From a virus, in the IMG/VR virus record IMGVR_UViG_3300004154_000012: a DNA stretch of 64,000 bases; one strand, written 5' to 3'. The position numbers were made by a program, and so were the translations under genes. The notes below the pieces were generated by a model. That model had not been told where the DNA came from, made no database searches, and saw only the letters and a list, made by a program, of their open reading frames with translations. This document shows positions 1 through 44,576 of the stretch, piece after piece. The first letter of the stretch is position 1. The number at the start of each line of letters is the position of its first letter.

Positions 1-6
1 GTCGCC

Positions 7-288
7 ATGTTCATGGCCGGAACTGCTGCGGCGCAGACGCTCTACCCGCCGATGCCATGCTCCTATTACGCTCAGTCCGCCTATGGGTATGCAGTTGAGC
101 GGGATCGAGGATTCACGAAGGAATCGCGCTTGGCCGAGCTGGACCGGCCGCCGGCGGACAACAAAACCGCCATCGCGATCGAGCGGCAGATGATCGAGGA
201 CCTGTGGACCCGTCGGGACGTCACGCCTGATCAGGCCCTGTCATGGGCGCACGGCTGGTGCGGGTGGCGCGCCCTTCCTCGACGTTAG
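7..288 (+). CDS. hypothetical small protein, possibly secreted; N-terminus may be cut by the window edge
   Basis: 93-aa ORF whose frame stays open back to nt 1. MFMAGTAAAQ looks like the end of a signal peptide. Third codon positions are mostly G/C. It is the only plus-strand gene here, convergent with 285..623, and their stop codons overlap. Confidence 0.35.
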   Translation: MFMAGTAAAQTLYPPMPCSYYAQSAYGYAVERDRGFTKESRLAELDRPPADNKTAIAIERQMIEDLWTRRDVTPDQALSWAHGWCGWRALPRR

Positions 289-623
289 GCCCCCGCGTCA
301 GGGTCGATGATCGACACCAATTCCCCGTCGGGATTCTCCACCCGCCTGTCCGGGTGGGGAAAACGCGCGTTCGCCTGATATTCCAGAAACGCCGCACGCA
401 AGGTCTCCTCCAACCCCGCCGGCGGCACCATGGCCGCCGTTTCCGGATCCTGATAGTTGCCCAGCATGCCAAGCTGGTCCGGGCCATACCCGGCACGCTT
501 TAGGAGCGCCTTGACCGGCCACCAGTAGACCCCGAACAGCTTGTACCGTTGCGGCTCGATCTGGAGTTGGGAGAGCACGTTCCGCAGCGCTGCGTGGACA
601 TCCATCATCAGTGTCTGGCTCAT
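285..623 (-). CDS. hypothetical protein, last gene of the leftward packaging/head-accessory operon
   Basis: 112-aa ORF. Its start overlaps the stop of the 2126-aa gene by 4 nt. No motif recognised. Confidence 0.45.
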   Translation of the reverse strand: MSQTLMMDVHAALRNVLSQLQIEPQRYKLFGVYWWPVKALLKRAGYGPDQLGMLGNYQDPETAAMVPPAGLEETLRAAFLEYQANARFPHPDRRVENPDGELVSIIDPDAGA

Positions 624-3600
624 TTCGACAGCTCCTCATGCAGAGCGGCAGCCGCCTCATCGGTGCGCATCGCGTTCAACAGGAAGTCGCGCACAGAAAC
701 CCCGCTATCCGTGGTGCGGTAGGCGTTCCCGCGCTTGGCCACCCGGAACACCTCCGGATGCACCTTATCGTCGTTGAAGCTGGACAGCGGCACCACCTCC
801 TTAATGGGATGATCCAGAACGCCTAGCGCCTTGGCCTTGCGCGCAAGGGCCCGCGCTGTTTCCTCCGGCCACGCCTTGTCCTCCAGAGCGCCATTGGCGG
901 GGCGCGACAGGTCAAGGGTTGGCAGCGCTGACCGTACGGCGTCGTGGAAGGTCGGCGAGTCCTCGATGTTGGCCAGCGCCCGGCGATGCACTTCCTGGTC
1001 CGCTTCGGCTCGCGCCGACGGGTCGAACAGGTTGTGCATGATCGACGCCCACGGATTCCCTCGATCGGCTCCATATTCGAAGCCTGGATATGCCGGCTCG
1101 ATCCCAACCGCCTTCGCGCCTCCATACGTGGTGCGCCGACCTTCCGCATACCGCGTTTTAATCTTCCGCTTGAGCGCAGCCCGCACATAGCCCTCAATCG
1201 CCAGCCTCCGCCCTTCATCCGTCGGCACGATCAGGTCGTGTGTCCCAATCATCCTGCGACCGTCGAAACTGGCGTACGCCACAGGGTTTCCTGCCGCATC
1301 GATCATGCCATACGGACCGCTGTGCCCATGATCGCGATAATTTCGGATCGCATCCTTGAGTTGGAACTGGAGCGTGGGAGCCATTCGCTCCAGCATGTCT
1401 TTCGGCAGATGCTTCAGGGCCGCCGGTGTCGTGGCGGTGCCGACGCCGGATACCGCCTTAGCTTCAGCCGCCACCTGAATCTCCGCAGCCTCCGCGTCCT
1501 CGTCATAGCCGAACGGCGTCACTCCCGACTTCATTTTCCCGATCGGAATATCCAAGGTGTGGCCGTCCGCCCGCCCCCATTGACGGCAGTGCAGCTTGCC
1601 ATCCTCCAGGTCGACGCTCGTGACCACCCACTTCGACGGGGTGCTGCTCCAATTCACCGGCGCTTCCGAGCCTCCGACCATCTCGAAAGCTCTGTTCTTC
1701 GCCCAGGCGTGGTTCGTCACCGGCTCGATCAGGGCTGGCTCGCCACCATCCAGAAGGTCCTTGTGGTTGAAGTAGCGGCTATCGCGCAGAGCCTCGCGCA
1801 GCAAGGCCATTTTGACGGCGAGACGATCGGCTGCCCTCCCCTTTGCGCCAGAAGCATTCAGTTTTTTGAGACTGGCCGTCATCTCTTGGAAGCGACCGAA
1901 CATGTCAACCGCGCGGCCCCTCTCCTCCGCCGTCTTCCGCTCCGCCGCGGCGGCCTTGTCCGCCTCGTATTTTGCCCGCGCCTCCTCCGGGTGCGCCGCA
2001 AGCATGATGAGCATGTCCTGGCGGGAAAACGCCCCCTCGCGCGCCAGGTTCTCCACCCGATCGCCGCCGTTCCACAGCAGGTCCTGCCAGTCCTTCTTGG
2101 ACAGGATCGTCTGGTACCGGTAGCCATCGAACGACCCTTTGGCCATATACGTGTGGATGCGGACCGCCTCGCGGGTGTTCCCTTGCCGAAGCCCTCGACC
2201 GTTGCGTTGTTGCAGGGTCGAAGGCTCCCAGGGCAGATCGCAGTGATGAAGGTCCGTCGTCATCTTCTGGAGGTTGACGCCCTCCTCCATCGTCTTGTTG
2301 CCAATCACCACCTTCAGTTTGCCACTGTTGAAGTCGTCGGAAATCCTCTGCCGCGCGGCAGAGGTGGAAGCGGCCTTGGCGTTGATGATGCCGATCTGGT
2401 CGCGCGGGATGCCCGCCGCCACCAGGGCCGTGGCGATCTTCTCGTGCGCGGCGACAGCTTCGCAGAACACCACCTGCCCGCCATCGGTCGAGAGCTTGGC
2501 GACGTTCGCCGCCACAGCCTCGATCTTCGGCGAGCGCGCGCCCTTGTGCTGCGGGCCCAACAGCTCCAGGTCGAGCGACGCCTTCCCCATCTTGTCCATG
2601 ATGGAGAAAATATGGGCATCGCCGGTATCGTCACCGCTGGCCTTATCCGCAGCCGCTTGGCGCAGTTCCTGATAGACCGCCTCCTGTTCCGAGGTCATGT
2701 CGATCAGGTGCTGGTGGTCCTGGCGCGCGGGAAGCTGGAGGCCGACGTCGGCCGCCGTCTTCCGGTCGATGAAGCGGCGCATCACCTCCCGTAGCTCGCC
2801 GAGGTTCTTGAAGCCAGCCGTCACCAACGCTTCCTCGACTTGGCCGTCGACGGTCAGAATCGTGTCCTCCTTGAACTCGCAGAAGCGGTCCAGGAAATCC
2901 TCGCTGTTTTTGATGCCCATGCGCTCGAAAGCTTCCGGCGCGATGTGCGACAGCATCGAATAGATTTCGAGCGGGCTGTTCTTGGTCGGGGTGGCGGTCA
3001 GCATGTAGATGCCCTTGCCGCCGTTGGCGTCCCGCAACGAGCGCGACTTGAAATAAGTGTCCTGCGCCCGGTTCGATAACCCGGAACCGCCCAGGAACTT
3101 CGGCGACTCGCCGAAGCGATTCCGCGCCGCATAGAGGTTCTTGTATGCCTGCCCCTCGTCCATCAGCAGCATGTCGATGCCGAGGTCGTTGAAATAGACC
3201 GTCCCCTCCCGCTTGCCGAACTCGCGCTTCGCCAGCGCCTGTTCGTGCGCTGTCCTGATCTGGTTCAGCCGCTTGTCACCGGCATTGCCCAGCTTGTCGC
3301 CACGCTTGGTCCAGAAATCGTCGTTCGCATACTGCCCCTTGGTGATCGGGTCGACATCCAGATCATTCCAGGCCGGTTGCGAGATGAACACGAAATCATA
3401 TTCGTTCTGCTGCAACTCGTGATACTTGCGTCGGCGTGTCTCTTCATTGTCTGATTTCGAGACGAGGTTGCCGACTTTGTCGCGCGAGTAGGTTTCGCCG
3501 ATCACCAGGACCTTGGAGCCGGGAAACCAGAACTCCGCCTCCTTCACCCAATTCGCCAGCACCGACTTCGGCACCACGAAGGTCGGGCGCTTCGCCTGCC

Positions 3601-6600
3601 CAGTGACCTTCGCCAGCTTCGCCAGCATCAGCCCTCGACCGGTCTTTCCCAGACCAACATCGGCGGCGATGATCCCCTTGCCGGCCTCCAGCGCCCAGCG
3701 CAGACCAGCAAAGTGGTAGCCGTTGACGTCAAGGGCGGGGTTCAGGCCGGGAATCGCTATCGGCGCGTCGCTGTAGGCCTTCGGCACGAAGCCGCGATAG
3801 GTGCGATTATACGCCTCCTCGACTTGGTCGCGCCATTCTGAGCCCAGCAGCCAGTCGCGGAACTCCTTTTGCAGCCGCGCGACCTTATCCCGATCATCCT
3901 TCCGCACGCCAGCGCGGTTCAGGAACTTCTCCACCAGCTCCGCGTCGTGGTTGAAACCATCGGGGCGAAGCCTATAGAGGCCATCATCATAGCTGACGTC
4001 GACCGCGCCCGGCGCCCAGGACGCGCCCGGATGCTTCTCCATGAAAGTCGCCCGGCGCGCAGCGAACCACGCCGTCAACACCGTCGGCTTGATGAAGCCG
4101 CTGTTGAGGGAGATTTCCACGTCCTCCAACGACTGCGGCGCAATCGCCTCCTCCAGCGCCGCCACCTGTCGCTGGTACTTCCCACGGTAGGCATCGGACA
4201 GGCCCTCATGCGCCAGGGCAGCCTTAGCCGCGTCGTACCGCTGCCACAGGTCCCCCGAGAGGTAAGCATCCATCGTCGTCCAGGTCTGCCCGTCCGGATC
4301 CACAGCAAAGGCTGGTGACGCGAACAGGTGGTCGAGCACAGCCTCCCGGTCGCCATGCCCCCAGGCCGCGGCGAGCTGGTCTACCGTGAAGCCGCCGGAC
4401 TCCAGCGCGATCTTCGTCGCGATGGTGTCGAGGTCGGCTCCGCCAGCCTCGCGGGTTCGGCCGGTGACGAGGTCGGAATAGGTGCCGTCGTCATGCACGG
4501 CGCCCAGCAGGCGCGCGACGCGCCGACGGGCCCGATCAACGTCATAGGCATGGTCTTCGTCGCTCCGCCCCTTTTCCCGCAGGAGGATAGGTGCCTGAAG
4601 CCACTGCCGGAGGTCCTTGTTTCGGTGCGGCGCGCCGTGCGTCGCCACATAGTCGTCCAGCAGTTCGGCGAGTTGGGCGCGGGCGAACCGCGGGTCCTTG
4701 GCCCGGCCGTCCGCCAAGTCCTCCAGCAGTTCCGCGATGCGGTGCGCATCTTCGACCGCTGCGGGAGTTTCCTCCTCCGTCCGATGCCAGCGCGGCGGGT
4801 CGCCCTGGAGGATGTAACGCTCCCCGTTCACCACCTTGACGTCACCCGGCTTGGCGACCTGGTAGGGGTTCTTCAGCGCCGCGTTGACCGCGCGCCGCTT
4901 GGCTGCGGTGTCATCGCCCAGGTGTTTCAAAATCTGCGTTACAGTTGGCGACGTGCCGCCCATGTCCTCCGGCCGCCACGCGGCCAGCGCCTCCGGCACC
5001 CCCTCCATTGAGCCGCTGACGGTGATGTCCTGACCGATGCCGGCCTTGGCCCGCCACCCTTCCTCCAGGCGGCCCATGACGTGGCCAGCGCCGCGGCCAT
5101 CGCTGAAGTACGTGCCGCCCAGCATGTCAGCGTCCCACACGCCCAGCGCTTGAAGTTGGTCCTGCGTCAGGGTGGAAAGCGCGCCGGCCACATCCTGTGG
5201 ACGCTTCCGGAAGATCACGATGTCGCTGGTGACTGCCGTGTGTGCGGCGGAGAAGGCGGTGTTCGGGAGTCGATGAGCGCCCAGGAACTCTCCTTTACGC
5301 ATCAGGCGCTCGCGCACAGCGCGGCCATTCTGCGAGTCCATCAGGCCGGTGGGCACAATCAGCGCGACCAGCCCGCCATCGCGGCATTTGTCGAGAGCGG
5401 TGTCCACGAAATACGCCTCTGCCGTGGCCAAGTCCGGCTTGTCGTCTTTCACCACCGATCCGCGCAGGCCAAACGGCACGTTGCCGATCACGGCGTCGTA
5501 TTGCCGGCCATCCTGTGTTGCAAACCGCTCCAGGGACGCGGTGTGGACCTCGTGACCGGCCTGGGTGTGGAGGATGCGGGCGATGCGGCTGGAGATGGGG
5601 TCCATCTCCACCGCCGTCACGCGCGCCCCGGCCGGGGCGGTGTGGAGGAAAGCACCGGTGGCGCTGGACGGCTCCAGGACCTCCCCGCCGGTGAAGCCCA
5701 GGTTGGTCAGCATCGACCACATGGCCCCGGCGACGGCCGGATCGGTGTAGAACTCGTTCAAGGAATCGCCGACGCCACCGCGGCCGGTATACTGCGCCAG
5801 GACGGCGCGGTCCTCTGCCGTCATCTGGTCATCGGTTTTGTCCTTCAGAATCGCCAGCGCCCGTGCGTTCGCCGCCTTCCGTGCCTTCTTGGTCGTGCCG
5901 GTGGGGACACCCCACTGGAGCGGCTTTGCTTCTGCGCTGGCACCCTCGTTTGTGGGGGATGCAGATGGCGCCGCATTCTCCTTCGACCATGCCGCAGCGT
6001 TGGCCAGGGCCTTGCGTGCATTGGCGAACCAGACCTTCCGGCCCATGTCAGTGGTGCCTTGATGCAAGGCATTGCCCATGGCCTCCCGGACCTTGTGCTT
6101 CGGAATGCCAAGCACATCCTGAACCGCTGGAGACAACCATTCGAAGCGGGCGCTTCGCGGATTCAGGTTGAGCAGTTTGAGGTCCGCGTCGCTCAACTCC
6201 TGACCTGCCAGAAGACGTTCGCGAATGTCCGCTTTGTGGCGGGCCGACGTCTCCGCCTGTTTCGCCGAATGCAGGCGGTTGCTGTGCCACTGTCGCGCTT
6301 CAGCGACCGCCGCCTCCCGCGTGGCTTGGAAGTTGCCCAGCGGCTCGCCAGCGGCGTCCTTCACACGCCATTTCCCAGCGGCGAGGCCGCGCCCGTCCTG
6401 GTACAGACGCGCGCCCACCGGGAGACCGTCTACGTTCTCCAGTTCCTCCCCCTCATGCGGAACGTCTGGAGCGGGTTCGGGCGCGGGCATGGGATCACTT
6501 CCGCCATCAGCCGGCGCACGGAGGCCCAGCAGCGCCTCCACTTGGTGGATGTGGAGTCCCCCGATCTGCGCCATGAGCTGCACCGCCCGCGCGCGCTCCA

Positions 6601-7000
6601 TCGGCTTGGCGGCCTTCAGCTTCGCCGTCAGCGCATCCTTCCCGGCGTGCGCGGTGATGAACTCGGCCAGCTTCCGCAAGCCGTCGCCGACCGGAGCGAC
6701 AGCGTCGGACGGTTTCCTGGCGGGGGCAGGGGCAGCGTCACCGAACAGGGTCGGCTGCACTGCGGTCGGCTTGGGAGAGTCGAAGAGAGAGGCCTGTGCC
6801 GGACCAACCGCCGACGCCTGCCGTTTGTGCCGGACGCCGCGGTGGGGCGCCACATAGGTCCCCCGCTTGGTCGTATAGCCGGTGACGTCGACAGGTGTGG
6901 CGAACAGGTCGGAGGAGGCGCCTCCGGGGATGGCAGCCTTGAGAAGGATAATCACTGGACAGTCCCGCGCGTGATGGCCATGCGCGGAGTGTGCTGTCAC
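620..7000 (-). CDS. giant polyvalent protein: N6-adenine DNA methyltransferase plus SNF2/DEAD-like helicase (DarB-like)
   Basis: 2126-aa ORF. SAM-binding EPSSATGAFL and catalytic IGNVPFG motifs. Helicase Walker A ADVGLGKTG, DExx box LLMDEGQAYKN, TATP, and motif VI QQRNGRGLRQGN. The start is ambiguous: GTG 7000 (inside the GTCGTGAC motif) or GTG 6955. Confidence 0.9.
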   Translation of the reverse strand: MTAHSAHGHHARDCPVIILLKAAIPGGASSDLFATPVDVTGYTTKRGTYVAPHRGVRHKRQASAVGPAQASLFDSPKPTAVQPTLFGDAAPAPARKPSDAVAPVGDGLRKLAEFITAHAGKDALTAKLKAAKPMERARAVQLMAQIGGLHIHQVEALLGLRAPADGGSDPMPAPEPAPDVPHEGEELENVDGLPVGARLYQDGRGLAAGKWRVKDAAGEPLGNFQATREAAVAEARQWHSNRLHSAKQAETSARHKADIRERLLAGQELSDADLKLLNLNPRSARFEWLSPAVQDVLGIPKHKVREAMGNALHQGTTDMGRKVWFANARKALANAAAWSKENAAPSASPTNEGASAEAKPLQWGVPTGTTKKARKAANARALAILKDKTDDQMTAEDRAVLAQYTGRGGVGDSLNEFYTDPAVAGAMWSMLTNLGFTGGEVLEPSSATGAFLHTAPAGARVTAVEMDPISSRIARILHTQAGHEVHTASLERFATQDGRQYDAVIGNVPFGLRGSVVKDDKPDLATAEAYFVDTALDKCRDGGLVALIVPTGLMDSQNGRAVRERLMRKGEFLGAHRLPNTAFSAAHTAVTSDIVIFRKRPQDVAGALSTLTQDQLQALGVWDADMLGGTYFSDGRGAGHVMGRLEEGWRAKAGIGQDITVSGSMEGVPEALAAWRPEDMGGTSPTVTQILKHLGDDTAAKRRAVNAALKNPYQVAKPGDVKVVNGERYILQGDPPRWHRTEEETPAAVEDAHRIAELLEDLADGRAKDPRFARAQLAELLDDYVATHGAPHRNKDLRQWLQAPILLREKGRSDEDHAYDVDRARRRVARLLGAVHDDGTYSDLVTGRTREAGGADLDTIATKIALESGGFTVDQLAAAWGHGDREAVLDHLFASPAFAVDPDGQTWTTMDAYLSGDLWQRYDAAKAALAHEGLSDAYRGKYQRQVAALEEAIAPQSLEDVEISLNSGFIKPTVLTAWFAARRATFMEKHPGASWAPGAVDVSYDDGLYRLRPDGFNHDAELVEKFLNRAGVRKDDRDKVARLQKEFRDWLLGSEWRDQVEEAYNRTYRGFVPKAYSDAPIAIPGLNPALDVNGYHFAGLRWALEAGKGIIAADVGLGKTGRGLMLAKLAKVTGQAKRPTFVVPKSVLANWVKEAEFWFPGSKVLVIGETYSRDKVGNLVSKSDNEETRRRKYHELQQNEYDFVFISQPAWNDLDVDPITKGQYANDDFWTKRGDKLGNAGDKRLNQIRTAHEQALAKREFGKREGTVYFNDLGIDMLLMDEGQAYKNLYAARNRFGESPKFLGGSGLSNRAQDTYFKSRSLRDANGGKGIYMLTATPTKNSPLEIYSMLSHIAPEAFERMGIKNSEDFLDRFCEFKEDTILTVDGQVEEALVTAGFKNLGELREVMRRFIDRKTAADVGLQLPARQDHQHLIDMTSEQEAVYQELRQAAADKASGDDTGDAHIFSIMDKMGKASLDLELLGPQHKGARSPKIEAVAANVAKLSTDGGQVVFCEAVAAHEKIATALVAAGIPRDQIGIINAKAASTSAARQRISDDFNSGKLKVVIGNKTMEEGVNLQKMTTDLHHCDLPWEPSTLQQRNGRGLRQGNTREAVRIHTYMAKGSFDGYRYQTILSKKDWQDLLWNGGDRVENLAREGAFSRQDMLIMLAAHPEEARAKYEADKAAAAERKTAEERGRAVDMFGRFQEMTASLKKLNASGAKGRAADRLAVKMALLREALRDSRYFNHKDLLDGGEPALIEPVTNHAWAKNRAFEMVGGSEAPVNWSSTPSKWVVTSVDLEDGKLHCRQWGRADGHTLDIPIGKMKSGVTPFGYDEDAEAAEIQVAAEAKAVSGVGTATTPAALKHLPKDMLERMAPTLQFQLKDAIRNYRDHGHSGPYGMIDAAGNPVAYASFDGRRMIGTHDLIVPTDEGRRLAIEGYVRAALKRKIKTRYAEGRRTTYGGAKAVGIEPAYPGFEYGADRGNPWASIMHNLFDPSARAEADQEVHRRALANIEDSPTFHDAVRSALPTLDLSRPANGALEDKAWPEETARALARKAKALGVLDHPIKEVVPLSSFNDDKVHPEVFRVAKRGNAYRTTDSGVSVRDFLLNAMRTDEAAAALHEELSK

Positions 7001-7003
7001 GAC
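6996..7003 (-). promoter_or_regulatory. GTCGTGAC junction motif copy
   Basis: Minus strand reads GTCGTGAC-AGCACACTCCGCGC-ATG, 14 nt to ATG 6981. That ATG opens a 9-codon mini-ORF, not the giant ORF. Confidence 0.6.
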
Positions 7004-7054
7004 GGATTCGAGGCGCCCCAGGCGAACAGGTCCTGCTGCGCCGTCTCCCGGCGC

Positions 7055-7735
7055 TCATCGGTCGCGATAGCGAGGCTGCGCGCGGTGGCGTGCTCCGTCA
7101 TGCGCTTGCACCATGGCCCGCAGGAACAGAATCGAGCCGGCCTTGAGAAGGCGCGGCGCATCCCGAGTGGTCAGGACCTGCCGCTTGAACTCCACAACTG
7201 GCATTTCGGCGACACTGCCGAAAAACCGTGGGTCGTCGTACATACCGGCGAACGCCGCCCTGGCCTCCTCCTCGGTGTTGAAGCCCAGCAGGGCCTTCTG
7301 CTCGTCCTTCACGATGAAGGCGGGCGGCGCCATCGTGGTCACGACGTAGACAGTCGGCGCGTCCGGGTTCGGCCCCACCAGACAGTCGAAATGGTCGCCG
7401 TCGATGCCGAGCGTGCCCCGGATATAGCCGTAATGGTGCTGCATGGAGATGGCCCACTCGTGGCCACCGCAGTCCACACCCCGTCGGATGGAGCCCCGTG
7501 GGTTCTCGATCGTGATGTCGAGGCCCTGGAACTGGAGACGGTGCTTGCGGTAGTTCCCAGCGTCGAGCTGCGCTGACGTCGGAGCGTGGTCGACGTCGCG
7601 CGATGCCGCGTGAACGCGGAGGGAGATGGCGCGATCCTCCGCCGCCATCGCGACAGGATCGCCGCCGGTGCGGCGTGCGAGGAGCCGCTGATAGCGGGCC
7701 TCGATGTCGGATTTGCAGAGGAGGAGGATCGTCAT
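7055..7735 (-). CDS. head-accessory protein with inorganic-pyrophosphatase-like core (tentative)
   Basis: 226 aa. GNYRKHRLQFQGLDITIENPRGS block, and GIDGDHFDCLVGP resembles the PPase DGDPxDxLV metal site. The C-terminus carries LLKAGSILFLRAMVQAHDGARHR, a module shared with neighbouring genes. Confidence 0.6.
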   Translation of the reverse strand: MTILLLCKSDIEARYQRLLARRTGGDPVAMAAEDRAISLRVHAASRDVDHAPTSAQLDAGNYRKHRLQFQGLDITIENPRGSIRRGVDCGGHEWAISMQHHYGYIRGTLGIDGDHFDCLVGPNPDAPTVYVVTTMAPPAFIVKDEQKALLGFNTEEEARAAFAGMYDDPRFFGSVAEMPVVEFKRQVLTTRDAPRLLKAGSILFLRAMVQAHDGARHRAQPRYRDR

Positions 7736-7749
7736 GCCGGCAGTGTGCC

Positions 7750-7757
7750 GTCACGAC
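7750..7757 (-). promoter_or_regulatory. GTCGTGAC junction motif copy
   Basis: GTCGTGAC-GGCACACTGCCGGC-ATG, exactly 14 nt to ATG 7735. No Shine-Dalgarno in the spacer. The motif starts 7 nt after the MuF-like stop codon. Confidence 0.65.
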
Positions 7758-7763
7758 GGCGGA

Positions 7764-8954
7764 TCACCTCTTGGCTGCGGCCGCCTCGAATTGCTGGCGC
7801 TTGGATTCCGCGATCTTGCCCTTCAGCCAGGACTCGAACTCCGGCGACACCTCGGGCGGCCGCTCGCTGACCGGCGTCCAGGTCCCGCGACAATGCGGAT
7901 GCTGGACGCCGGCGGCCGGCCACCACATCTCCTCCGGCTCCCGCTCCACCAACTCCCCGCCCTCACGCTTGCGCGGTGCCGCCGACCGGCCGACGTTCGT
8001 CTTGCCGACCCACACCTCTTTCCAGCCGTCCTTGTCCGGCTTGTCCGCCGACACGACGGTCAGCACCAGACCGTTGATCGACTTGCAAAAGTCGCACGCG
8101 CCGCGATAGGCCTCCATCCGCTTGACGCGCTGGCCCGGCGTCTGCGCGGCGATGAAGCCCTGGCAGGTGCATTCCCCCGCCTCCGTCACCGCGATCCGGC
8201 GGAAGTCCCGGTTCAGGATCCCGAACGTGTCGAACAGTTCCTGCCGCAGCGCGCCGGTGGTGCCCTCCTTCTGGCCCAGCACCATCGCCTGGAGGTTTTC
8301 CCGCACGATCCGCTTCATGCGCGACCGCGCGCCCTCTGTGACGTCGGAAATATGCTGCGCCGCGCGTTCCTTCGCGAAGATCAGGATGGCGTGCTCCGTC
8401 GGGGTCAGCACGCGCGGCGGAACATGGGCGAACCGCGTGGGCAGCATCTCCGCCAGCGCGTGGATGGTCGCGTGGTCCGGCTGATGGGCCTCCATGACGG
8501 CCTGGACCTTGCCGGCCATGGCCGCCCGCACCGTCAGGTATTCGGCCTCCGTCTGGATCACCTCATCGGGCAGGTAGCGCTGCACCAGGTAATCGACCAG
8601 CAGCATCCAGTCCTCCAGCGTGTAGCTGGATGGAGGCTTGGCCTCCAGCCGCATCCGGACTTCCTGGAATCGCGTCTCGTCCCAGCGCAGCCAGGGCGGC
8701 AGGGACTTGGCCAACTCGCCGATCGGCTCCCCGGTCAGCGCTTTCGCCAGCGCGTCCTGGAGCGCCTGGAGGAGGCGTTGGAGCCGGCGCGTCACATCCT
8801 CGACGTGCTCCGTGATGTATGGGTTGTCGTGTCTGGCCCAAACACCATCAGCGTCGCCGGAGGGATTCTCCGACAACGCTTTATAGAGCTGGTCAAGATG
8901 ATGGTCGCAATGGCAGGCCGGAACGGCCCCTATATCAATCAAGAGGGGCGGCAT
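7764..8954 (-). CDS. MuF / SPP1 gp7-like head morphogenesis protein
   Basis: 396 aa, immediately after the portal-proximal gene. C-terminal CDFCKSINGLV ... HPHCRGTW matches the HPNCRC-type signature of MuF-family proteins. Confidence 0.75.
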   Translation of the reverse strand: MPPLLIDIGAVPACHCDHHLDQLYKALSENPSGDADGVWARHDNPYITEHVEDVTRRLQRLLQALQDALAKALTGEPIGELAKSLPPWLRWDETRFQEVRMRLEAKPPSSYTLEDWMLLVDYLVQRYLPDEVIQTEAEYLTVRAAMAGKVQAVMEAHQPDHATIHALAEMLPTRFAHVPPRVLTPTEHAILIFAKERAAQHISDVTEGARSRMKRIVRENLQAMVLGQKEGTTGALRQELFDTFGILNRDFRRIAVTEAGECTCQGFIAAQTPGQRVKRMEAYRGACDFCKSINGLVLTVVSADKPDKDGWKEVWVGKTNVGRSAAPRKREGGELVEREPEEMWWPAAGVQHPHCRGTWTPVSERPPEVSPEFESWLKGKIAESKRQQFEAAAAKR

Positions 8955-8955
8955 G

Positions 8956-10716
8956 TCACCGCCCCTTACGCAGGAAGAAGATTATTCGGCCGCCTGCGGG
9001 TAGGGCTTTCTGGAGGCCTTCGCCGCGACCATCTTTTTCAGCCAGTCCGGGCGCTCGATCGACGTCCGGTTGGCCAGCGGGCGGCTGTCCATCGAGTCCA
9101 TCTTCTCCATCTGCTCCGGCGTCAGCTTGGTCATTGCCCATCTCCGAAATCAGCTTGGGCGGTTGGCCCTTGTCAACATTATTGTCCCTAAAGCTCCAAA
9201 CGTCCACCAGAGATTTAACAGCGTCGAAAGACGCTTCGTTCCCGGTGTTGCCCAATACCACCTCAGGCGGTACGAACCGGCCGGTAGGCCCAAGGAAGCG
9301 CTCGATTGCACGCTTGGCGGCTTCCTGGCGCGGCAGATGCATATAATGTGCCTCCACCCGATAGCCGGCGGCCTGGAAGCCCTTCACGTTCTTGACCGCC
9401 TTCTCCTTTGTTTTCATGGTGGCGTCGTGGACGATGTTCAAGCCAAGATCCATTGCTGCCAGCGTGATTTCATCGAACAGTTCACCAGACTCTTCGTGAA
9501 CCTGAAAAGCGTTCCAGCCCTGATACTCCGGCAGCATGCCTTTGATTTCATCGGCATCCAGAACGATGACCTTCTTCGGATCGTAGACCTTCCCTTTAAA
9601 CCAGCTCTTGCCAGAACCGCCACGGCCGCCGAGCACCGTGAATGTCGGTGACTGTCCGTCCCCTGGCGTGGCCGCCTCCACGGCTGCCTGGTTCAGGAAG
9701 TGCTCAAAGATTTTGCCATGCAACGCCCGCCGCTCCTCGGTCCACCGGCCGTTGACCTTGTGTTGCTTGATGGTCTCCGGCAGGGCGGCAATGCGCTTTT
9801 GCACATCGGCAATCTTCTCCGCAGTGTCCGCTGGGAAACCCTTTAGAATGTCATCGACGGTCGCGTTCGGGTCGTTGGTCTTCGTGAAGTAGTCCGCCGC
9901 GGTGAACTTGTCCGGCGGAATTGTGCCATCACCACCGCCATCACCGCCGCCGCCGGCGGACGGCTTGGCCTCTACATTGTTATCTGCCGCCTTGTCCTGC
10001 TTGTCGGGCGTGGCATCGCCGGCATCGCCGGCGGAGGGGCTAAGGAGGTGCTCGTGGCGGACTTGGTGTTCCCGCCCGGTATGATCCTGCAAGGTGACTC
10101 CGTCCGTACCGCTGGCAACGATCTTCCCTTCACCCTGGACATCACCGTGCCGGAACGGGACGACGTCGCCATGCTTCATTGGCGTCGGACCCTTGTCGTT
10201 GGCCGGCTCCTCTTGAACCGTGCGGGTCCAGCGCTTCGTCTGATGCCCCGCCTTGTCGGTGACGTCCTTCAGCGCCAAGCCTGCGCGCTGGGCGATCGGA
10301 GCCGCCTTCAGGAACAGGATGCGGGTATCAGGAATCATGGTCGCCTCATTAGTCATGCTCTTTTGGAGGCGGTCGAGCCCGCCCAACAACGGATCGTCCC
10401 GCCCCGGTACCGTCGGCACCGGGGCGTCGGTAGTGTCCGGCAGCGCGCCAGTGACGAAGCGGCGGCACCCCTTGTCATCCTCCAGCAGGGCGCCGTCAGC
10501 CCCCTGGTCGATAATCCGCATCCGTTGAGTCATGCGCGTCTTATGACCGAGGTATGCGTCCCAGTGCAACTGATGGGATTTTCCTCGGTCGCAACGGGCC
10601 GTCATGCCGTCCTTGCCATGCGCAACCACCTTCACGGCCATCGGCCCATGCTGTGGATGCCGCACATAGACCTCATCGCCGGGCTCGACGTCCGGCCGCT
10701 GCGGCCGCTTGCTCAT
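8956..10716 (-). CDS. head-associated protein with C-terminal zeta-toxin-like P-loop kinase domain
   Basis: 586 aa. Walker A LGGRGGSGKSWF followed by VLDADEIK ... IVHDATMKTKEKA, the layout typical of zeta/AAA_33 kinases. The N-terminal half has two GD-x-V ... G-x-DG-x-T SH3-like repeats and an ILFLKA module. The gene lies between portal and MuF. Confidence 0.75.
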   Translation of the reverse strand: MSKRPQRPDVEPGDEVYVRHPQHGPMAVKVVAHGKDGMTARCDRGKSHQLHWDAYLGHKTRMTQRMRIIDQGADGALLEDDKGCRRFVTGALPDTTDAPVPTVPGRDDPLLGGLDRLQKSMTNEATMIPDTRILFLKAAPIAQRAGLALKDVTDKAGHQTKRWTRTVQEEPANDKGPTPMKHGDVVPFRHGDVQGEGKIVASGTDGVTLQDHTGREHQVRHEHLLSPSAGDAGDATPDKQDKAADNNVEAKPSAGGGGDGGGDGTIPPDKFTAADYFTKTNDPNATVDDILKGFPADTAEKIADVQKRIAALPETIKQHKVNGRWTEERRALHGKIFEHFLNQAAVEAATPGDGQSPTFTVLGGRGGSGKSWFKGKVYDPKKVIVLDADEIKGMLPEYQGWNAFQVHEESGELFDEITLAAMDLGLNIVHDATMKTKEKAVKNVKGFQAAGYRVEAHYMHLPRQEAAKRAIERFLGPTGRFVPPEVVLGNTGNEASFDAVKSLVDVWSFRDNNVDKGQPPKLISEMGNDQADAGADGEDGLDGQPPAGQPDVDRAPGLAEKDGRGEGLQKALPAGGRIIFFLRKGR

Positions 10717-12479
10717 TCGCCCACCGTGTAGATCACGGTCGACGCCGCCAACGCCTTGCCGAAATCGCCGCCGCCGTTCCCGCCCCCGAACTCGCCACCA
10801 GCCGGATCGGCACCGACGTTCCTATCCGGCTCGTCCTGCCCATCGACATCGCCCTGGTCGGGCTCATCCTGGCCATCGCCTCCAGCATCGTCGGGCGCCG
10901 CGCCAAAATCCACGCCAGCGCCGCCGCCAAAGTCTCGGCCCTGCTGCGCCGGCTGCTGCATCTGCATCCATGGCCCGATCAGCGAGGGGTTCAGCGGGGC
11001 CGCTCCGAGCTTATCGTCCGGATGCGCCTCATAGCCCATCTCCGCCCGCAGCTCGTCCACGGTCAGCACCAGCTTTTTGTTCTCCCAATCCCGCGCTTCG
11101 TCCTTCACGTCGAGGCCCAACCAGCGGAAGCAATACTTGTCGCTGAACTCCGAAACGATGAAGTCCGAGAACACTGACTCGAAATAGGACAGCAGAGGCC
11201 TCAGCCCTTTGTCCTTGCTATCGGCCAGTTTTTCAGCCGTATCGGACCCTGAAAGACTTGATTTTTGCGCGCTGAATGATTCGAAATTGATTTCATCCGG
11301 CGACATGCCGTAGATCGCGCAGATGATCGACGTCAGGAACGTCATCCATTTCGCGAAGTACATTTCATTGTACTCGATGCCGAAACGCTCAAAAGACGCC
11401 TTACTCTCTTGATCCTTCGACACCATGACAGGCAAGGCCCACGCGTTGTTGACGCCCTTCACCATGGCGTTCCAGTAACGCTTGAAGGCGTTCAGGTCCT
11501 CCTGCCCATAGTCGCCGGTCAGATGGAGGAGGCCCTTCGGAATCGCGTTTTGGTCGAACCCGGCGATGTTGTAGTTCATGGCGTTCAGGAACCCGGTGAC
11601 GGTGCGGATCAGCAGCTCCGTCTCGCCCAGGCCGTAGCCGGCCAGTCGCACATCGGACCGCGGATTCCGGGGCTCGTAGATGAGCTGGTCGCGGGTGTAG
11701 GCGGTGGCGATGCGACCTTGCACCACCTGGAGGGCGTAGATTTCGTCGTCGCCCTGGTAGTCGTCCTCCGCGCACAGGCGGATGGTCGCGCCGTCGACCG
11801 CATAGAAGCCGTCCATGCCCAGCGTGCGGTCGCGCTTGAACTCCGTCTCGATCGGCGCGCTGTCCATGGTCAGGCTGTCGCGGACCATCTTCGCCATGAA
11901 CTGGCTGAAATTGTCGCGCCGCAGCAGCTTGCGCTTGCGCGGGTTGAACTCCCATCCGCAGTTGGCGAAGAACTTCGCCAAGAGTTGCGTGCTCTCCTTC
12001 TCATCCGGCGTCAGCTTGTGCGTCTTGTCGACGTGCCGGATCTCGAAACCAGGGCCGCCGTCCTCGCTGATTTGGGTGAAGCGGCTCACCTGTCGGATGC
12101 GGGTCAACACGACGGCGTTCAGCACCGGGGTCTGGTCGACCATGGCCCGCAAACCGTCGAAGCCGAGCGGCGACGGCTTCTCCCAATAGTCGCCGTAGGC
12201 CTGGATTTGCAGGTTGTCGAGTTGTACCGACTGCATGCCGCGCGCCGGAGGCGGTCGCGTCCGACCGGGAAACTCGACGGCTTGCCCGCGCGCTTTCGCC
12301 AGCAGGCCCTGTTCCTCGAAAGAGGCGGCGATGAAGTCGATCACCGGCCGCATATGGTCAGCGGGGATCAGGTCGGACGCGGTTGGCCGATGCGCCTGTT
12401 GCAGCTCGGCATTGGCGTCATAGCGCTCGGCAGCCGGAGCGGCGGAATCGAACGCAATCTGGCGGGCATCATCGGTCAT
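10713..12479 (-). CDS. portal protein (assigned by position and size)
   Basis: 588-aa ORF directly downstream of terL and upstream of the MuF-like gene. Acidic Gly/Asp-rich C-terminal tail. The family cannot be verified without a search. Confidence 0.7.
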   Translation of the reverse strand: MTDDARQIAFDSAAPAAERYDANAELQQAHRPTASDLIPADHMRPVIDFIAASFEEQGLLAKARGQAVEFPGRTRPPPARGMQSVQLDNLQIQAYGDYWEKPSPLGFDGLRAMVDQTPVLNAVVLTRIRQVSRFTQISEDGGPGFEIRHVDKTHKLTPDEKESTQLLAKFFANCGWEFNPRKRKLLRRDNFSQFMAKMVRDSLTMDSAPIETEFKRDRTLGMDGFYAVDGATIRLCAEDDYQGDDEIYALQVVQGRIATAYTRDQLIYEPRNPRSDVRLAGYGLGETELLIRTVTGFLNAMNYNIAGFDQNAIPKGLLHLTGDYGQEDLNAFKRYWNAMVKGVNNAWALPVMVSKDQESKASFERFGIEYNEMYFAKWMTFLTSIICAIYGMSPDEINFESFSAQKSSLSGSDTAEKLADSKDKGLRPLLSYFESVFSDFIVSEFSDKYCFRWLGLDVKDEARDWENKKLVLTVDELRAEMGYEAHPDDKLGAAPLNPSLIGPWMQMQQPAQQGRDFGGGAGVDFGAAPDDAGGDGQDEPDQGDVDGQDEPDRNVGADPAGGEFGGGNGGGDFGKALAASTVIYTVGE

Positions 12480-12524: not shown

Positions 12525-12553
12525 GGTAGGTTGCTACCTACCTACTTAGCTAC
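12525..12553 (+). promoter_or_regulatory. dispersed GCTACCTACCTAGCTA-type element, copy a
   Basis: GGTAGGTTGCTACCTACCTACTTAGCTAC between the terL stop (12550) and the portal start. Contains GGTAGG-N6-CCTACC symmetry. Confidence 0.6.
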
Positions 12554-14595
12554 TCGCGTGGAATGAACACGACGCACGCCGGGTCCTTCGGCGCCACCGA
12601 GAAATGACGCTCGGTGCACTGCCCATCAACGAAGGCGGTGCATCGCCCGCACACCCCGGCCGGCAGATCGTCAATCAGCTTGACGACGTTGGCCGGCAGG
12701 CCCGGCATGGCCTCCACCAGTTTCTGAGCCACGGCCGCCTGTGGCCTCACGTCGGGCATGATGAAGGTGTTCGTGCCGTGTGCGCGCGCCCAGGCGACAT
12801 CGCACAGCATATTCGCGTATGAAAAGTGCGGGTCGATCCCCACCTTCTTGACCGACCGGCGGAAGGCGTTGGTCTCGTCATCCTTCTCCGCCACCAGCGC
12901 CGTCTTGGTGAAGTGGAGGAATGCGCGCGGCAGGACCGGCACCGTCTGCCGCACCCCCTTCTCCCGCACCTCCTGCACAAGCCCCTGACGGTCGGGGAAG
13001 AGGCAGATGGTCTGCGTGAGGCGGGCCATGGCGACCTGCATGCACTTGTACTGGTCGAGCCGGACGGTATAGCGGTCGCGCTCGGCCTCGGCGGTGCGGC
13101 GCTCGGACACATCGAGCCGTGGTGCATCCCCCCACTGGATCATGCCCTCCTTCAGCGACCCGTAAGAATCGCAGATGAAGACCTTGCCCTTGTGGCGGTT
13201 GGCGAAGCGCTTGGCGTCGTTGTAGTTCGGGTTGATTTCGACCACGCACGCCGCGACGCCATAGGTCTCCATCAGCTCCGAGCAGCGGGCGAAGGGATTT
13301 TCACTGTAGACCTCCTCAACATGGATCACCGCCTGCCGACCGTCGGGCAGGCGCTCTTTGATGATCACGCAGTTGAAATTGCCCATCTGGTCGATGCCCA
13401 TGAACGTGCCTTGCGCCCGCGTCTTCCAGACAAGCCCGGCGGCAATGCCGGTCTTCTCGCACGCGGCCAAATGCTCCAGCGTCACCGGGACTTGGCTGGG
13501 ATCGAGGTATGGCTTGCCCAGCTTTCGATTGTAAAAATTCTTCAGGTCCGTGGCAGAGTTGTAGGCATACAGGATTTCGCCGGCGGAAATTGTCGGGGAG
13601 AGGAACTGCGGGAAATGGATGCTGCGGATGCGGAGCGGCCGATCCTTCTTCGGAATCGCGTAGTCGATCGGCTGGTCTGCGTCTGGATTGTCCGCGATCC
13701 AGGCCCCCCGCTGCGGATCATCGATCCAGTGACCAGCCTCGCACACATACCGATCAGCGTGTCGGATCGGGTCCCATTTGATGCAGGCTGGGAAATAATC
13801 GTCCAGAGGTTTGCGCCGGCCGCACTCCGGGCATTCGGTGTGGAACCGGTATTGCGACCCTCGCTTGTACCAGTGGTTAATATCGGAATCTGGCCAGTTG
13901 GCCGTCGAGCCCATCAGCACGAAGCGGATCGGGGAAGCCGACAGACGTTCCAGCGTCTTCTCCATCTGTTCCAGGCTCATTTCCTGGACTTCATCGAAGG
14001 AGAGGACATCCATCGGGATCGACTCCGTGGTCGCCCGGCCGGAGGTCCACGAGAAGATGAACAACGCCTCACCAACGCGCCGACGGGTCACGTTGCCTTC
14101 GCCCGCCTTGCGGCCGCTGCCATCCTGCGCCTCATGCGTCATCAAGGCATGGACGGAGGGGACCGACCGGACGATCGGCATGAAGCGCTCGGTCGACTTC
14201 ACCCCGGCGAGGTTCATGTCGGGCAAGAACATGCCCACGGTGGCCGGGCCGAACCGGAGGCCCAGGTAGATGGTGGCCAACATCTCCATGACGGTAAATC
14301 CGACCTGCGCGCACTTCTGGAGGACCAGCACGAAACGATAGGCCTCGTCCTCCGTGCTGGGGACCTGGTCATAAATCCAGGCCATGGCCGGGCGGTCATC
14401 CAGCTTGAAGGCCTTCCCGTCGACCTTCATCCCCTCGTCCCCCAGCTTCTCGACCCACTGCCGGAACGTCATGCCGGGCGGGATCGGGCTCTTGAGGGCA
14501 CCGGTGGTCAGGTTCAGTTCGCGCTCCAGAGCCGCGATCATGCGGTTTTGCGCCGCCCGTGATGTCTCCAGAGGGTTCTGCCGCCCGACCGCCAT
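12550..14595 (-). CDS. terL: terminase large subunit (lambda GpA-like)
   Basis: 681 aa. ATPase signature LQKCAQVGFT (GpA-type K-x-A-Q/R-V-G), Walker B VLSFDEVQE, Cys-rich C-terminal tail. Sits between the small terminase and portal. Confidence 0.85.
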   Translation of the reverse strand: MAVGRQNPLETSRAAQNRMIAALERELNLTTGALKSPIPPGMTFRQWVEKLGDEGMKVDGKAFKLDDRPAMAWIYDQVPSTEDEAYRFVLVLQKCAQVGFTVMEMLATIYLGLRFGPATVGMFLPDMNLAGVKSTERFMPIVRSVPSVHALMTHEAQDGSGRKAGEGNVTRRRVGEALFIFSWTSGRATTESIPMDVLSFDEVQEMSLEQMEKTLERLSASPIRFVLMGSTANWPDSDINHWYKRGSQYRFHTECPECGRRKPLDDYFPACIKWDPIRHADRYVCEAGHWIDDPQRGAWIADNPDADQPIDYAIPKKDRPLRIRSIHFPQFLSPTISAGEILYAYNSATDLKNFYNRKLGKPYLDPSQVPVTLEHLAACEKTGIAAGLVWKTRAQGTFMGIDQMGNFNCVIIKERLPDGRQAVIHVEEVYSENPFARCSELMETYGVAACVVEINPNYNDAKRFANRHKGKVFICDSYGSLKEGMIQWGDAPRLDVSERRTAEAERDRYTVRLDQYKCMQVAMARLTQTICLFPDRQGLVQEVREKGVRQTVPVLPRAFLHFTKTALVAEKDDETNAFRRSVKKVGIDPHFSYANMLCDVAWARAHGTNTFIMPDVRPQAAVAQKLVEAMPGLPANVVKLIDDLPAGVCGRCTAFVDGQCTERHFSVAPKDPACVVFIPRE

Positions 14596-17321: not shown

Positions 17322-18185
17322 TCAGTCCAGGTCGCCATCAAACGCGGCGACCGTCTTCGGCCCGACGACACCGTCCGCAACAAGACGATGGTCGATCTGG
17401 AATTTTTCGACTGCGATTTCGGTGGCGCGACCAAATGCTCCATCAAGGGCCAAGTCCGCACCGTGCCGATTGAGCGCGGATTGCAGTCGTTTGACCGCCG
17501 GGCCACGCGCGCCGATGCGCAGCATCGCAACGGCGGACACCGACGACGTCGGGATGGCCTGAACCTGTCGAGCGGCCGTCGCACCCGCCCGCTCGACGGC
17601 TTCAGCGTAAGCGACGGCCAACTTGCTGTCGTACTGGTTCTCACGGTACCGAGCACCGTTGTAGCCCTCGGCGAAGGCTGCCCAATCATGAACGCGAAGC
17701 ACTGGCGCAAGCCCAGCGTGCAGCACAAACACGCCGAATGCCTGGAGTTGGGCGAACTCAGATTCTGCCATGGCCGCGACGAATTCCTCGACATCGGCGA
17801 ATCCGCAGGCGCGACAGTTCGCCCCCAAAACCTGGAACATGCCCCAGGACGCGGATTTCAGCGCCGCGGCGCGATCGAGGCCGACAGCCTCCTCCAGCCG
17901 GAGGTATTCCCCGGCCCCGCCCTTGTAGAGCTTGCGGTTCCAGGACGGCGAGGAGATGCCCGGGTGGGTCTCGTCATGCCGACCTTCGGTCGCGGCCGAG
18001 AACTTGTGCGCCTCAAACAGGATGCGCGGGCGGCCGGAGCCGTCGGAAAGGAAGCCGCCACAGCCGCCGGTCTCGACGGTCAGGACGGCTTGCACGGCGG
18101 GAAGATCGCAGCCCAACAGCGTCGCAACATACTGCATGTCGGCAGCGCCAAGCGGGCGGGCGGCGCCGGAGAAGGGGAGGGGCAT
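17322..18185 (-). CDS. endolysin: N-acetylmuramidase (DUF3380-like) plus C-terminal peptidoglycan-binding domain
   Basis: Start refined to ATG 18185 (GAGG SD). ILFEAHKF, ASWGMFQVLG and AEGYNGARYRENQYDSKL blocks. C-terminal GPAVKRLQSALN...DGAFGRATEIAVEKFQ...DGVVGPKT is PG_binding_1-like. Confidence 0.85.
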   Translation of the reverse strand: MPLPFSGAARPLGAADMQYVATLLGCDLPAVQAVLTVETGGCGGFLSDGSGRPRILFEAHKFSAATEGRHDETHPGISSPSWNRKLYKGGAGEYLRLEEAVGLDRAAALKSASWGMFQVLGANCRACGFADVEEFVAAMAESEFAQLQAFGVFVLHAGLAPVLRVHDWAAFAEGYNGARYRENQYDSKLAVAYAEAVERAGATAARQVQAIPTSSVSAVAMLRIGARGPAVKRLQSALNRHGADLALDGAFGRATEIAVEKFQIDHRLVADGVVGPKTVAAFDGDLD

Positions 18186-18225
18186 AGCAGCCTCGTGAGG
18201 GAGATGGGTACCCCACGAGTGTCGC

Positions 18226-44443: not shown

Positions 44444-44457
44444 GCTCCACTCCGCTG

Positions 44458-44538: not shown

Positions 44539-44576
44539 TCTGTCCTTCCGGTCGCAAGCTCCTCATGCGATGCGAC

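Follow-up and report, generated by a model that had tools for sequence, protein, structure and literature searches.

What fills a phage head operon when the genes that follow the portal gene are not those for scaffold, protease or capsid? This arrangement occurs in a 64,000-nucleotide (nt) stretch of viral DNA (IMG/VR record IMGVR_UViG_3300004154_000012), referred to below as the window. The gene cluster studied lies on the minus strand of the window, where the late head operon reads from terminase through portal to a series of cargo genes. An original prediction had taken these genes for a Dar-like set of effectors, comparable to the Dar proteins of phage P1, that are packaged in the capsid and ejected with the DNA. 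We consider it likely, though well short of certain, that the region is a cargo slot in the head-morphogenesis operon of an ~82-kb myovirus-type phage with plasmid-type replication and partition genes, and that the cargo would be packaged and ejected, with a DarB-Ulx pair acting against restriction. This judgment applies to the reading as a whole.

Gene content of the portal-to-protease slot

The minus-strand order is terminase, portal, and proteins of 586, 396, 226, ~2111 (open reading frame [ORF] of 2126) and 112 amino acids (aa):

12550..14595, minus strand: large terminase, GpA type (PF05876, E 2.9e-15; phrog_675, E 5e-77)
10713..12479, minus strand: portal protein (PF04860, phrog_12)
8956..10716, minus strand: 586-aa cargo protein with two Tudor/SH3-like beta domains, a zeta-toxin-type kinase and a disordered tail (PF06414, E 2.2e-21, residues 351-490)
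7764..8954, minus strand: MuF-like minor head protein of 396 aa, found in every related locus, minimal ones included
7055..7735, minus strand: stand-alone InPase, a polyvalent-protein-type pyrophosphatase of 226 aa (PF18823, E 1.1e-39)
620..6955 (ORF open to 7000, 2126 aa), minus strand: DarB-like N6-adenine methyltransferase and SNF2 translocase, ~2111 aa (N6_Mtase, SNF2-rel_dom, Helicase_C)
285..623, minus strand: Ulx-like protein, 112 aa (phrog_1629, 'Ulx-like anti-restriction', E 5.6e-11)

An ORF check confirmed the minus-strand ORFs named in the original prediction, and a third-position GC content (GC3) of 0.72-0.87 backs the coding status of all cluster genes. The matches to PF06414, to PF18823 and to N6_Mtase, SNF2-rel_dom and Helicase_C bear out its zeta-like kinase, pyrophosphatase-like and methyltransferase-SNF2 assignments. 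The genes are closely spaced: overlaps of 4 nt join the portal and 586-aa genes and the 2126-aa and 112-aa ORFs, and the 586-aa and 396-aa genes overlap or abut. The terminase gene, the first of the late head operon in the window, encodes a protein with 70% identity to the terminase of Pseudomonas phage Dolphis.

We surveyed the slot in 80 IMG/VR loci and ~30 GTDB genome loci (~110 in total), each encoding the 396-aa family. The distance from portal to protease runs from 1.7 kb, with the MuF-like gene only, to more than 19 kb, and the modules occur in several mixes (MuF only, with InPase, with helicase, or the full set). The sole constant gene between portal and prohead protease is the MuF-like gene. 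The interchangeable genes comprise the Tudor-like module fused to a zeta-type kinase, InPase, the DarB-like methyltransferase-SNF2 protein with Ulx, a 1537-aa superfamily 2 (SF2) helicase, an HD hydrolase and a DdrB-like zincin; relatives carry ART-PolyVal, LPD1, LPD3 and PAPS-reductase proteins in the same slot. At the minimal end, Dolphis and Yersinia phage fHe-Yen8-01 have portal, MuF-like gene and protease only. From portal to protease, the cargo genes share one direction and leave little space between them, with the same layout in Bordetella phage vB_BbrM_PHB04 (NC_047861; PHB04 below). In every relative, lytic isolates included, the slot genes run in the direction of the late structural operon that holds them.

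Iyer, Burroughs, Anand, de Souza and Aravind (2017) described the DarB-type methyltransferase-SNF2 dyad, InPase and MuF-fused zeta-like kinases as components of polyvalent proteins, which are delivered by virions or by conjugation (PMC5512222). Judged by its gene content, the slot is hypervariable and filled from this domain repertoire. 

The original prediction further held that head-assembly genes had been replaced and that the operon ends at a convergent gene. Both statements change once the source of the window is followed past its edge. This source is the Joint Genome Institute (JGI) metagenome contig Ga0209373_10000348 (82,171 bp; locus L005), 100% identical to window positions 1-10623. 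Past window position 1, it carries the convergent gene, the 1537-aa helicase, three reverse genes, several small genes, a 447-aa protein and the protease:

1..288 of the window, plus strand: convergent small gene with a signal-peptide-like product (MHTIVVAAVAMFMAGTAAAQ...), 103 aa in the contig, N-terminus lost at the window edge (JGI gene call L005 10336-10647)
L005 10682-15295, operon strand, beyond the left edge of the window: 1537-aa SF2 helicase (phrog_62)
L005 15332-16405, minus strand, against the operon: three small genes of 110 aa, 65 aa and 158 aa (HD hydrolase), from contig gene calls
L005 17561-18904, ~7-8 kb past window position 1 and just upstream of the prohead protease: 447-aa DdrB-like zincin protein (blastp to P1 DdrB)

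The prohead protease (phrog_1028) is reached 9.7 kb beyond window position 1. Because the protease and, by synteny, scaffold and capsid lie downstream, the head genes have been shifted by insertions of ~19 kb and are not lost; their apparent replacement is an effect of the window edge. The convergent gene is real, but the operon resumes after it with the 1537-aa helicase and runs up to the protease. The cluster also holds more than the four cargo proteins first listed, among them this helicase and the DdrB-like zincin. Family searches with the convergent 103-aa protein gave no match; its gene looks like a moron-like insertion past which the late operon continues. The opposite-strand small genes that break the operon (the 103-aa gene and the 110/65/158-aa trio) all look like morons, and PHB04 gp024, in a comparable place, encodes a 70-aa protein with a similar signal-peptide-like N-terminus.

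A DarB-like and Ulx-like pair

The large protein matches phrog_11801 with 1263 bits and also phrog_10089, 'DarB-like antirestriction'. In tblastn searches, it aligned with DarB of P1, P7, D6, RCS47 and SJ46 in three collinear blocks, which for P1 DarB have E values of 2e-53, 3e-41 and 3e-26 and ~31% identity across the methyltransferase, SNF2 and Helicase_C regions. Its motifs include LEPSSATGAF, DVGLGKT, DEGQ, QQRNGRGLRQG and an unusual motif IV, GNVPFG, that is identical to that of P1. By sequence, this protein and P1 DarB are true homologues. The 2126-aa ORF is real, but the gene most likely starts at 6955, giving 2111 aa, because the JGI gene call is there and all orthologues begin M-IILLK at this position.

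The 112-aa ORF, left unlabelled in the original prediction, matches the Ulx-like PHROG phrog_1629 (E 5.6e-11), and its start overlaps the stop of the DarB-like gene by 4 nt. Direct BLAST of the 112-aa protein showed weak similarity to Ulx of P1 and D6 (E 0.045 for P1 Ulx, which is marginal). The DarB-like gene is followed by the Ulx-like gene in 11/11 evaluable related loci, the order also found in P1 and D6. In the 447-aa protein, only the C-terminal zincin matches P1 DdrB (WHELGH site, blastp E 2e-8), not the ParB-like N-terminal part; we found no orthologue of this protein in the 80 IMG/VR loci. A P1 DdrA match at window positions 6857-6979 falls on the non-coding strand of the DarB-like gene and was discarded as spurious. 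No similarity to P1 genes was seen for the portal, the terminase or the proteins of 586 and 396 aa.

In P1, DarB, Ulx and DdrB were found in the virion head by LC-MS/MS, and Ulx and DdrB help load DarB (PMC9024508, PMC12810830). Residues 1-30 of P1 DarB target the capsid, and the Dar proteins are co-ejected and protect from type I restriction (PMC9024508, PMC12810830). DarA, Hdf and DdrA are the base components needed to load the other Dar proteins (PMC12810830).

A short tag shared by slot proteins

The ends of slot proteins carry a short tag of four to five hydrophobic residues followed by Lys or Arg, often after LxK[A/S]. The copies within the window, all on the minus strand, are:

6938..6955: DarB-like N-terminal tag (V/M-IILLKA); all lineage orthologues start M-[IL][IL]L[FL]xK
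nt 7712-7729: tag at the N-end of InPase, MTILLLCKS (sequence reading)
nt 7115-7132: tag near the C-end of InPase, GSILFLRAM (sequence reading)
10300..10320: internal tag of the 586-aa protein, TRILFLKAA, residues 133-139, in a disordered linker (predicted local distance difference test score [pLDDT] <50)
8965..8985: C-terminal tag of the 586-aa protein, LQKALPAGG-RIIFFLRK-GR (family alignment)

The internal tag of the 586-aa protein is present in 13/14 aligned family members, the other member being truncated N-terminally. An LxK[AS] plus hydrophobic-basic C-end is found in nine of the 14, whether a zeta kinase or another domain precedes it. Further tags occur in the contig: AILFL in the helicase, and LILFLKR and KILFMR in downstream small proteins, with PHB04 orthologues the same. 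In the 1537-aa helicase the N-terminal ILFL tag is followed by RWITVHPNG, and the 447-aa protein combines a KILFMRG tag with a GDLF motif.

A comparison of slot ORFs with ORFs elsewhere in the IMG/VR loci located the tag in the first 25 aa of 43/384 versus 4/853 (p 1e-18, which overstates independence, as do all these tag p-values, because orthologues of the same proteins from many loci are counted) and in the last 15 aa of 21/384 versus 3/853. The enrichment on slot proteins is ~27-fold. Independent GTDB genomes gave a similar picture (15/126 versus 2/411 for the first 25 aa; 8/126 versus 2/411 for the last 15 aa). The tag is carried by around ten types of protein, distinct in their length, domain make-up or downstream sequence, and the tags fall in predicted disordered segments. 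Eight copies use different codons, and the idea of a repeated DNA element or recombination linker was rejected on this ground. The tag is not present in DarB of P1 and D6 nor in gp67 of Burkholderia phage DC1, and we found no Pfam family for the tag or leader.

The portal itself ends in a related way. An acidic, Gly-rich C-terminal tail containing DFG repeats terminates in DFGKALAASTVIYTVGE, and portals of the lineage (window 10713-10920; loci L009-L088) end in [LM]xK[AS]FGLP[VI][FY]x[IV]E-like sequence after such a tail. The FGKA-plus-hydrophobic-strand end of the portal tail resembles the LxKA-plus-strand ends of the cargo, and the [LM]xK[AS] motif is conserved across the lineage. From these patterns, we infer that the tag may be a lineage-specific capsid-targeting or docking signal. 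A shared tag on unrelated cargo proteins looks new; term searches of PMC5512222 gave no mention of one.

Candidate clamp-binding motifs in the DarB-like protein and the helicase

A second type of short motif lies in the N-terminal, Pro/Ala-rich part of the DarB-like protein:

6743..6796, minus strand: two Qxx[LM]F motifs (QASLF and QPTLF), candidate beta-clamp-binding motifs (motif count)

Among 23 DarB-like orthologues, Qxx[LM]F occurs 38 times in the first 150 aa and twice in the remaining 35,849 aa, with variants such as QLALF and QLGLF. The 1537-aa helicase ends in EEEEQTSLF, and nine of 11 orthologues have Qxx[LM]F at the carboxyl terminus. The bacterial beta-clamp-binding consensus is Q-L-x-L-F, usually in a terminal position (PMC4549789), and the peptides described here are of the QLxLF type and lie in terminal or disordered regions. 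This suggests that the DarB-like protein and the helicase could dock on the host beta sliding clamp. A literature search linking DarB or Dar proteins to the clamp returned nothing relevant; conserved QLxLF motifs in these two proteins look new.

The kinase, InPase and MuF-like proteins

The 586-aa protein matches Zeta_toxin (PF06414) with a score of 76.7 bits, above the family cut-off of 22.3. Aligned to the zeta toxin 1gvn, it conserves the Walker A motif (GGRGGSGKS; GxxGSGK[ST]) and the Asp of VLDADE (D-x-D motif). Its AlphaFold2 (AF2) model (pLDDT 71) comprises two Tudor/SH3-like beta domains, disordered linkers and the kinase domain, and a Foldseek search with this model found 1gvn (E 7.5e-9), PezT (2p5t) and AvrRxo1 (4z8q). 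In relatives, the Tudor-like N-module stands alone or is joined to other C-terminal domains. One such domain (in P0122, P0123 and P0128) was suspected by eye to be RelA/SpoT-like; Pfam gave no match, and the identity was dropped. P1 Pro was also ruled out as a relative of the kinase, since it is a protease.

InPase aligns with the InPase segments of giant DarB-like and minor-head PHROGs, and the InPase and methyltransferase segments of the window proteins both align to one giant profile, phrog_10089. The InPase and DarB-like ORFs lie in one frame, with a single TGA and 33 sense codons between them (window 7000-7057). Fusion of the two by stop-codon readthrough was set aside, as this arrangement occurs in 1/17 other loci and is probably due to chance.

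The 396-aa protein is always the conserved gene product after the portal. It has no Pfam, PHROG or NCBIfam match and falls outside the strict MuF families (PF04233, PF06152). Its 28 homologues yielded sub-threshold matches to PF06152 in six (best E 2.8e-4) and to PF04233 in two (best E 0.013). UniRef names homologues 'Phage head morphogenesis domain', and the orthologue in fHe-Yen8-01 is annotated as 'particle associated protein'. A Foldseek search of BFVD with the AF2 model (pLDDT 76) listed mostly proteins of MuF-like, minor capsid and head-morphogenesis type, although E values lay between 1e-3 and 1e-1 and template modelling (TM) scores were low; sequence and fold searches of the PDB found nothing. 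Because the UniRef naming, the weak PF06152 and PF04233 matches, the Foldseek list and the Yersinia annotation agree, the 396-aa protein may be described as a divergent MuF-type minor head protein, a label that draws on several weaker but convergent lines of evidence. Thus, the MuF-like label of the original prediction is backed by this convergence and not by a profile match to the window protein. Structure prediction, which it had proposed as a check, confirmed the kinase fold (1gvn, E 7.5e-9), and for the MuF-like protein gave weak BFVD matches with none in the PDB.

A packaged-cargo model and its alternatives

In the account that we favor, the cargo would be made late and recruited into the procapsid through the short terminal peptide, in function an analogue of the N-terminal capsid-targeting signal of P1 DarB, and would be ejected together with the DNA. 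The DarB-like enzyme would translocate along the incoming DNA and methylate or shield it against type I restriction, with Ulx needed for loading. The kinase, InPase and helicase would target DNA, signalling nucleotides or the host's pools of nucleotides or cell-wall precursors in the first minutes of infection, and the DarB-like protein and the helicase might dock on the host beta sliding clamp through their QLxLF motifs. A bolder form of this idea, which we offer tentatively, is that loading is generic and modular: a tag at either end would be sufficient to load any enzyme into the procapsid, perhaps by strand-pairing with the C-terminal tails of the 12 portal subunits or with MuF, and the DarB-like methyltransferase and the 1537-aa helicase would then be recruited to the clamp by QLxLF. 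Such modular loading would explain the free exchange of unrelated effectors in the portal-to-protease slot.

Several observations weigh against packaging and ejection of the cargo. The 'particle associated' label is found only in fHe-Yen8-01, a relative with a minimal slot and no cargo, and the presence of cargo in virions of this lineage is itself a prediction. The SNF2 motifs I and VI of the DarB-like protein are canonical, but helicase motif II is DEGQ, not DE[AG]H. Searches by tblastn with P1 DarA and Hdf gave no match in the window, L005 or PHB04 within the sensitivity of BLAST and hidden Markov models, and the PHROGs of DarA, Hdf and DdrA are absent among the family matches. As these three were not detected, the cluster is not a full P1 Dar system. 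The label Dar-like keeps its footing in the DarB homology, the Ulx order, the DdrB-like zincin, the head-operon location and the polyvalent domains, and loses it for DarA, Hdf and DdrA. Promoter and terminator scans gave counts equal to those of shuffled sequence and were uninformative. The tag, whose counts are not independent (see above), could just as well serve as a protease site, as an interaction strand or as part of the fold, and a clamp-binding motif fits replication-coupled enzymes as well as ejected ones.

The last point is taken up by a model in which the enzymes are expressed late and stay unpackaged, methylating or remodelling replicating phage DNA in the producing cell while tethered to the replisome by QLxLF, such that progeny DNA leaves protected. 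The motifs do sit where clamp motifs usually sit, at the helicase C-terminus (9/11) and in the disordered DarB-like N-terminus, and several other DNA methyltransferases in the genome indicate that self-modification is part of its biology. We nevertheless consider this model unlikely: P1 DarB acts in cis from the virion (PMC5512222), homologues of the known DarB loaders Ulx and DdrB are present, the genes lie between portal and protease and not with the replication genes, and a replisome role hardly explains a terminal tag common to enzymatically unrelated proteins. If the proteins are packaged, they might still serve mainly as structural or scaffolding parts, forming an internal core or determining head size as P1 DarA and Hdf do, with largely vestigial enzymatic domains. 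We give little credence to this idea, as the catalytic motifs are kept in the methyltransferase, SNF2, zeta kinase (Walker A, Asp) and zincin (HELGH), and every cargo gene but MuF is dispensable in some relative, which is unexpected for structural components; on its side are the wide conservation of the Tudor-like N-module and MuF beside the portal, the LxKA-plus-hydrophobic-strand motif shared by portal tail and cargo ends, which suggests an assembled internal complex, and the effect of P1 Dar proteins on head morphogenesis.

Finally, the cluster could benefit the host as a defence or addiction island of a phage-plasmid, a DISARM-, BREX- or Zorya-like methyltransferase-helicase with a zeta toxin that is expressed from the prophage and excludes phages or stabilizes the plasmid. 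Zeta toxins are classic plasmid addiction toxins (1gvn) and the element has ParA and Rep genes, but the locus has no epsilon/PezA-type antitoxin gene, and the kinase is a C-terminal domain of a protein whose gene overlaps the portal stop and abuts the MuF start, with no small gene next to it. Partial helicase and methyltransferase matches to DrmD, BrxH, ZorD, DpdE and MADS models do exist. They span 70-290 residues of helicase-C or methyltransferase cores with ~60 bits or less against cut-offs of 500-1100 (1263 bits for the DarB-like PHROG), no defence partner genes were found, and membership in DISARM, BREX, Zorya, Dpd or MADS systems was rejected. The genes are also co-oriented in the late structural operon of every relative, lytic isolates too, and we regard an island of this kind as very improbable.

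Genome context and relatives

Elsewhere, the window encodes Rep and ParA, a recombinase, an endolysin, further methyltransferases and tail fibres. The features of note are:

17322-18230: endolysin
18988-19608, near the endolysin: 206-aa tyrosine-recombinase-like gene (phrog_216)
23760-25487, outside the late operon: large DNA methyltransferase (575 aa, phrog_363)
37587-40009: 449-aa DNA methyltransferase directly downstream of a PAPS-reductase-like protein (367 aa, phrog_424)
43583-45355: divergent pair of a replication-initiation gene (phrog_23447, minus strand) and a ParA-like partition ATPase gene (plus strand)
54-64 kb, right-hand end: genes for baseplate and tape measure, in synteny with PHB04 gp002-gp010

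The Rep/ParA pair, a plasmid-type maintenance module, lies in the part of the window with the lowest GC content (0.55-0.59). This gene set is consistent with a phage-plasmid lifestyle, and the 206-aa recombinase may serve in dimer resolution (compare Cre in P1) instead of as an integrase. A megablast search against a plasmid collection gave no match. At least three methyltransferases are encoded in the window. A PAPS_reduct domain, found here outside the slot, is also tagged cargo in the slot of a relative (L056 11110-12333).

Linear mapping of the window on Ga0209373_10000348 overruns the contig end, so the window represents either a circularly rotated copy of the genome or a second assembly of it. 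Adding 18,171 bp to the 64,000 gives a total that agrees with a complete genome, circular or with terminal redundancy. Queries with genes from the right-hand end of the window, meant to join the contig into a circle, met only a 1.2-kb contig or no exact gene call. By gene order, the other ~18 kb of the contig should hold the protease, scaffold, capsid, adaptors, sheath and tube.

The nearest isolates are PHB04, Pseudomonas phages Dolphis, Jeremy and Touem01, Aeromonas phage ST4, fHe-Yen8-01, Escherichia phage ECML-606-1, Enterobacter phage phiT5282EW and Morganella phage Mecenats66. The closest genomic relatives come from Rhodospirillales, Acetobacteraceae, Azospirillum, Novacetimonas and Rhodovarius, with loci on ~90-kb contigs (one an annotated plasmid) or within large chromosomal contigs. 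The host probably belongs to Rhodospirillales or Acetobacteraceae. The lineage is widespread: its metagenomic relatives number in the hundreds, its isolates come from Bordetella, Pseudomonas, Yersinia, Escherichia, Aeromonas and Morganella, and Acetobacteraceae and Burkholderiales carry it as prophages or plasmids.

Significance and comparison with known systems

To our knowledge, delivery of anti-defence proteins from the capsid has been described for just a few model phages (P1, T4 and N4), and cargo selection is understood for very few such systems. The lineage amounts to a natural experiment in which many cargoes are exchanged within a single conserved slot and share a candidate address tag. 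Should the tag act as a loading signal, packaged effectors would become predictable from sequence, and chosen proteins could be packaged into phage particles, as has been done with the P1 DarB signal. The QLxLF motifs lead to a testable proposal for the site at which DarB-type enzymes work on DNA that enters the cell; clamp recruitment of Dar-type anti-restriction proteins, if true, would be a link without an earlier report. If the tag and clamp readings both fail, the cluster is an ordinary new member of the DarB/polyvalent-effector class.

The general idea of packaged effectors is largely already known, and the view of the cluster as uncharacterised holds only in part. PHROGs and RefSeq already label the PHB04 orthologues as Ulx-like and DNA methyltransferase, DarB-Ulx pairs in unrelated Thermus myoviruses were published with the same packaging hypothesis (PMC11437467), and the domain set was described in 2017.

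The P1 Dar system shares with this locus a DarB of ~2100-2250 aa with GNVPFG N6-methyltransferase and SNF2 ATPase, Ulx directly downstream and a DdrB-type WHELGH zincin. P1 darB adjoins prt, the portal gene, which lies on the other strand, and plasmid-type maintenance genes are present in both elements. Here, in contrast, homologues of DarA, Hdf and DdrA were not found, and the structural genes (portal, terminase and others) are unrelated to those of P1. The DarB N-terminus, which holds the capsid-targeting signal in P1, is not conserved and instead has an ILFLK-type tag and QLxLF motifs. A zeta-type kinase, InPase and a second helicase (1537 aa) are additional, and all genes lie in one operon from portal to protease, whereas P1 has two separate dar operons.

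T4 internal proteins (IPI-III, Alt) are similar in that a short terminal peptide sends diverse cargo into the prohead, from which it is ejected against host defences (PMC9024508, PMC5512222). They have no sequence relationship to the proteins described here, in which the tag may sit N-terminally, C-terminally or within the chain.

The closest isolated relative with the same slot is PHB04 (gp025-gp035). It has the portal, Tudor-like gp034, MuF-like gp030, InPase gp028, DarB-like gp027 (53% identity), Ulx-like gp026, 1518-aa helicase gp025, protease and capsid, with the same tags. It differs in that gp034 has no zeta kinase, a DdrB-like zincin is missing, and an HD hydrolase and a NinI-like phosphatase are added upstream of MuF; PHB04 also encodes an integrase, where the window element has Rep and ParA instead.

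Polyvalent proteins have InPase, a MuF-associated zeta-like kinase, the methyltransferase-SNF2 dyad and zincin metallopeptidase (MPTase) in common with this cluster, as well as ART-PolyVal, LPD1 and LPD3 in its relatives and the linkage to portal and MuF, and here too repertoire domains are encoded beside virion packaging genes. A polyvalent protein unites several effector domains (two to fifteen) in one polypeptide, as in the 4650-aa DarB-like gp67 of DC1 (Bcep22-like). In our cluster this applies to the DarB-like protein (methyltransferase and SNF2) and arguably to the 586-aa protein; InPase, Ulx and the HD hydrolase stand alone, and the domains are mostly split into their own genes, each with a terminal tag. 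The cluster is best seen as a split variant, spread over several genes, of the DarB/polyvalent-effector theme in a widespread, little-studied phage lineage.

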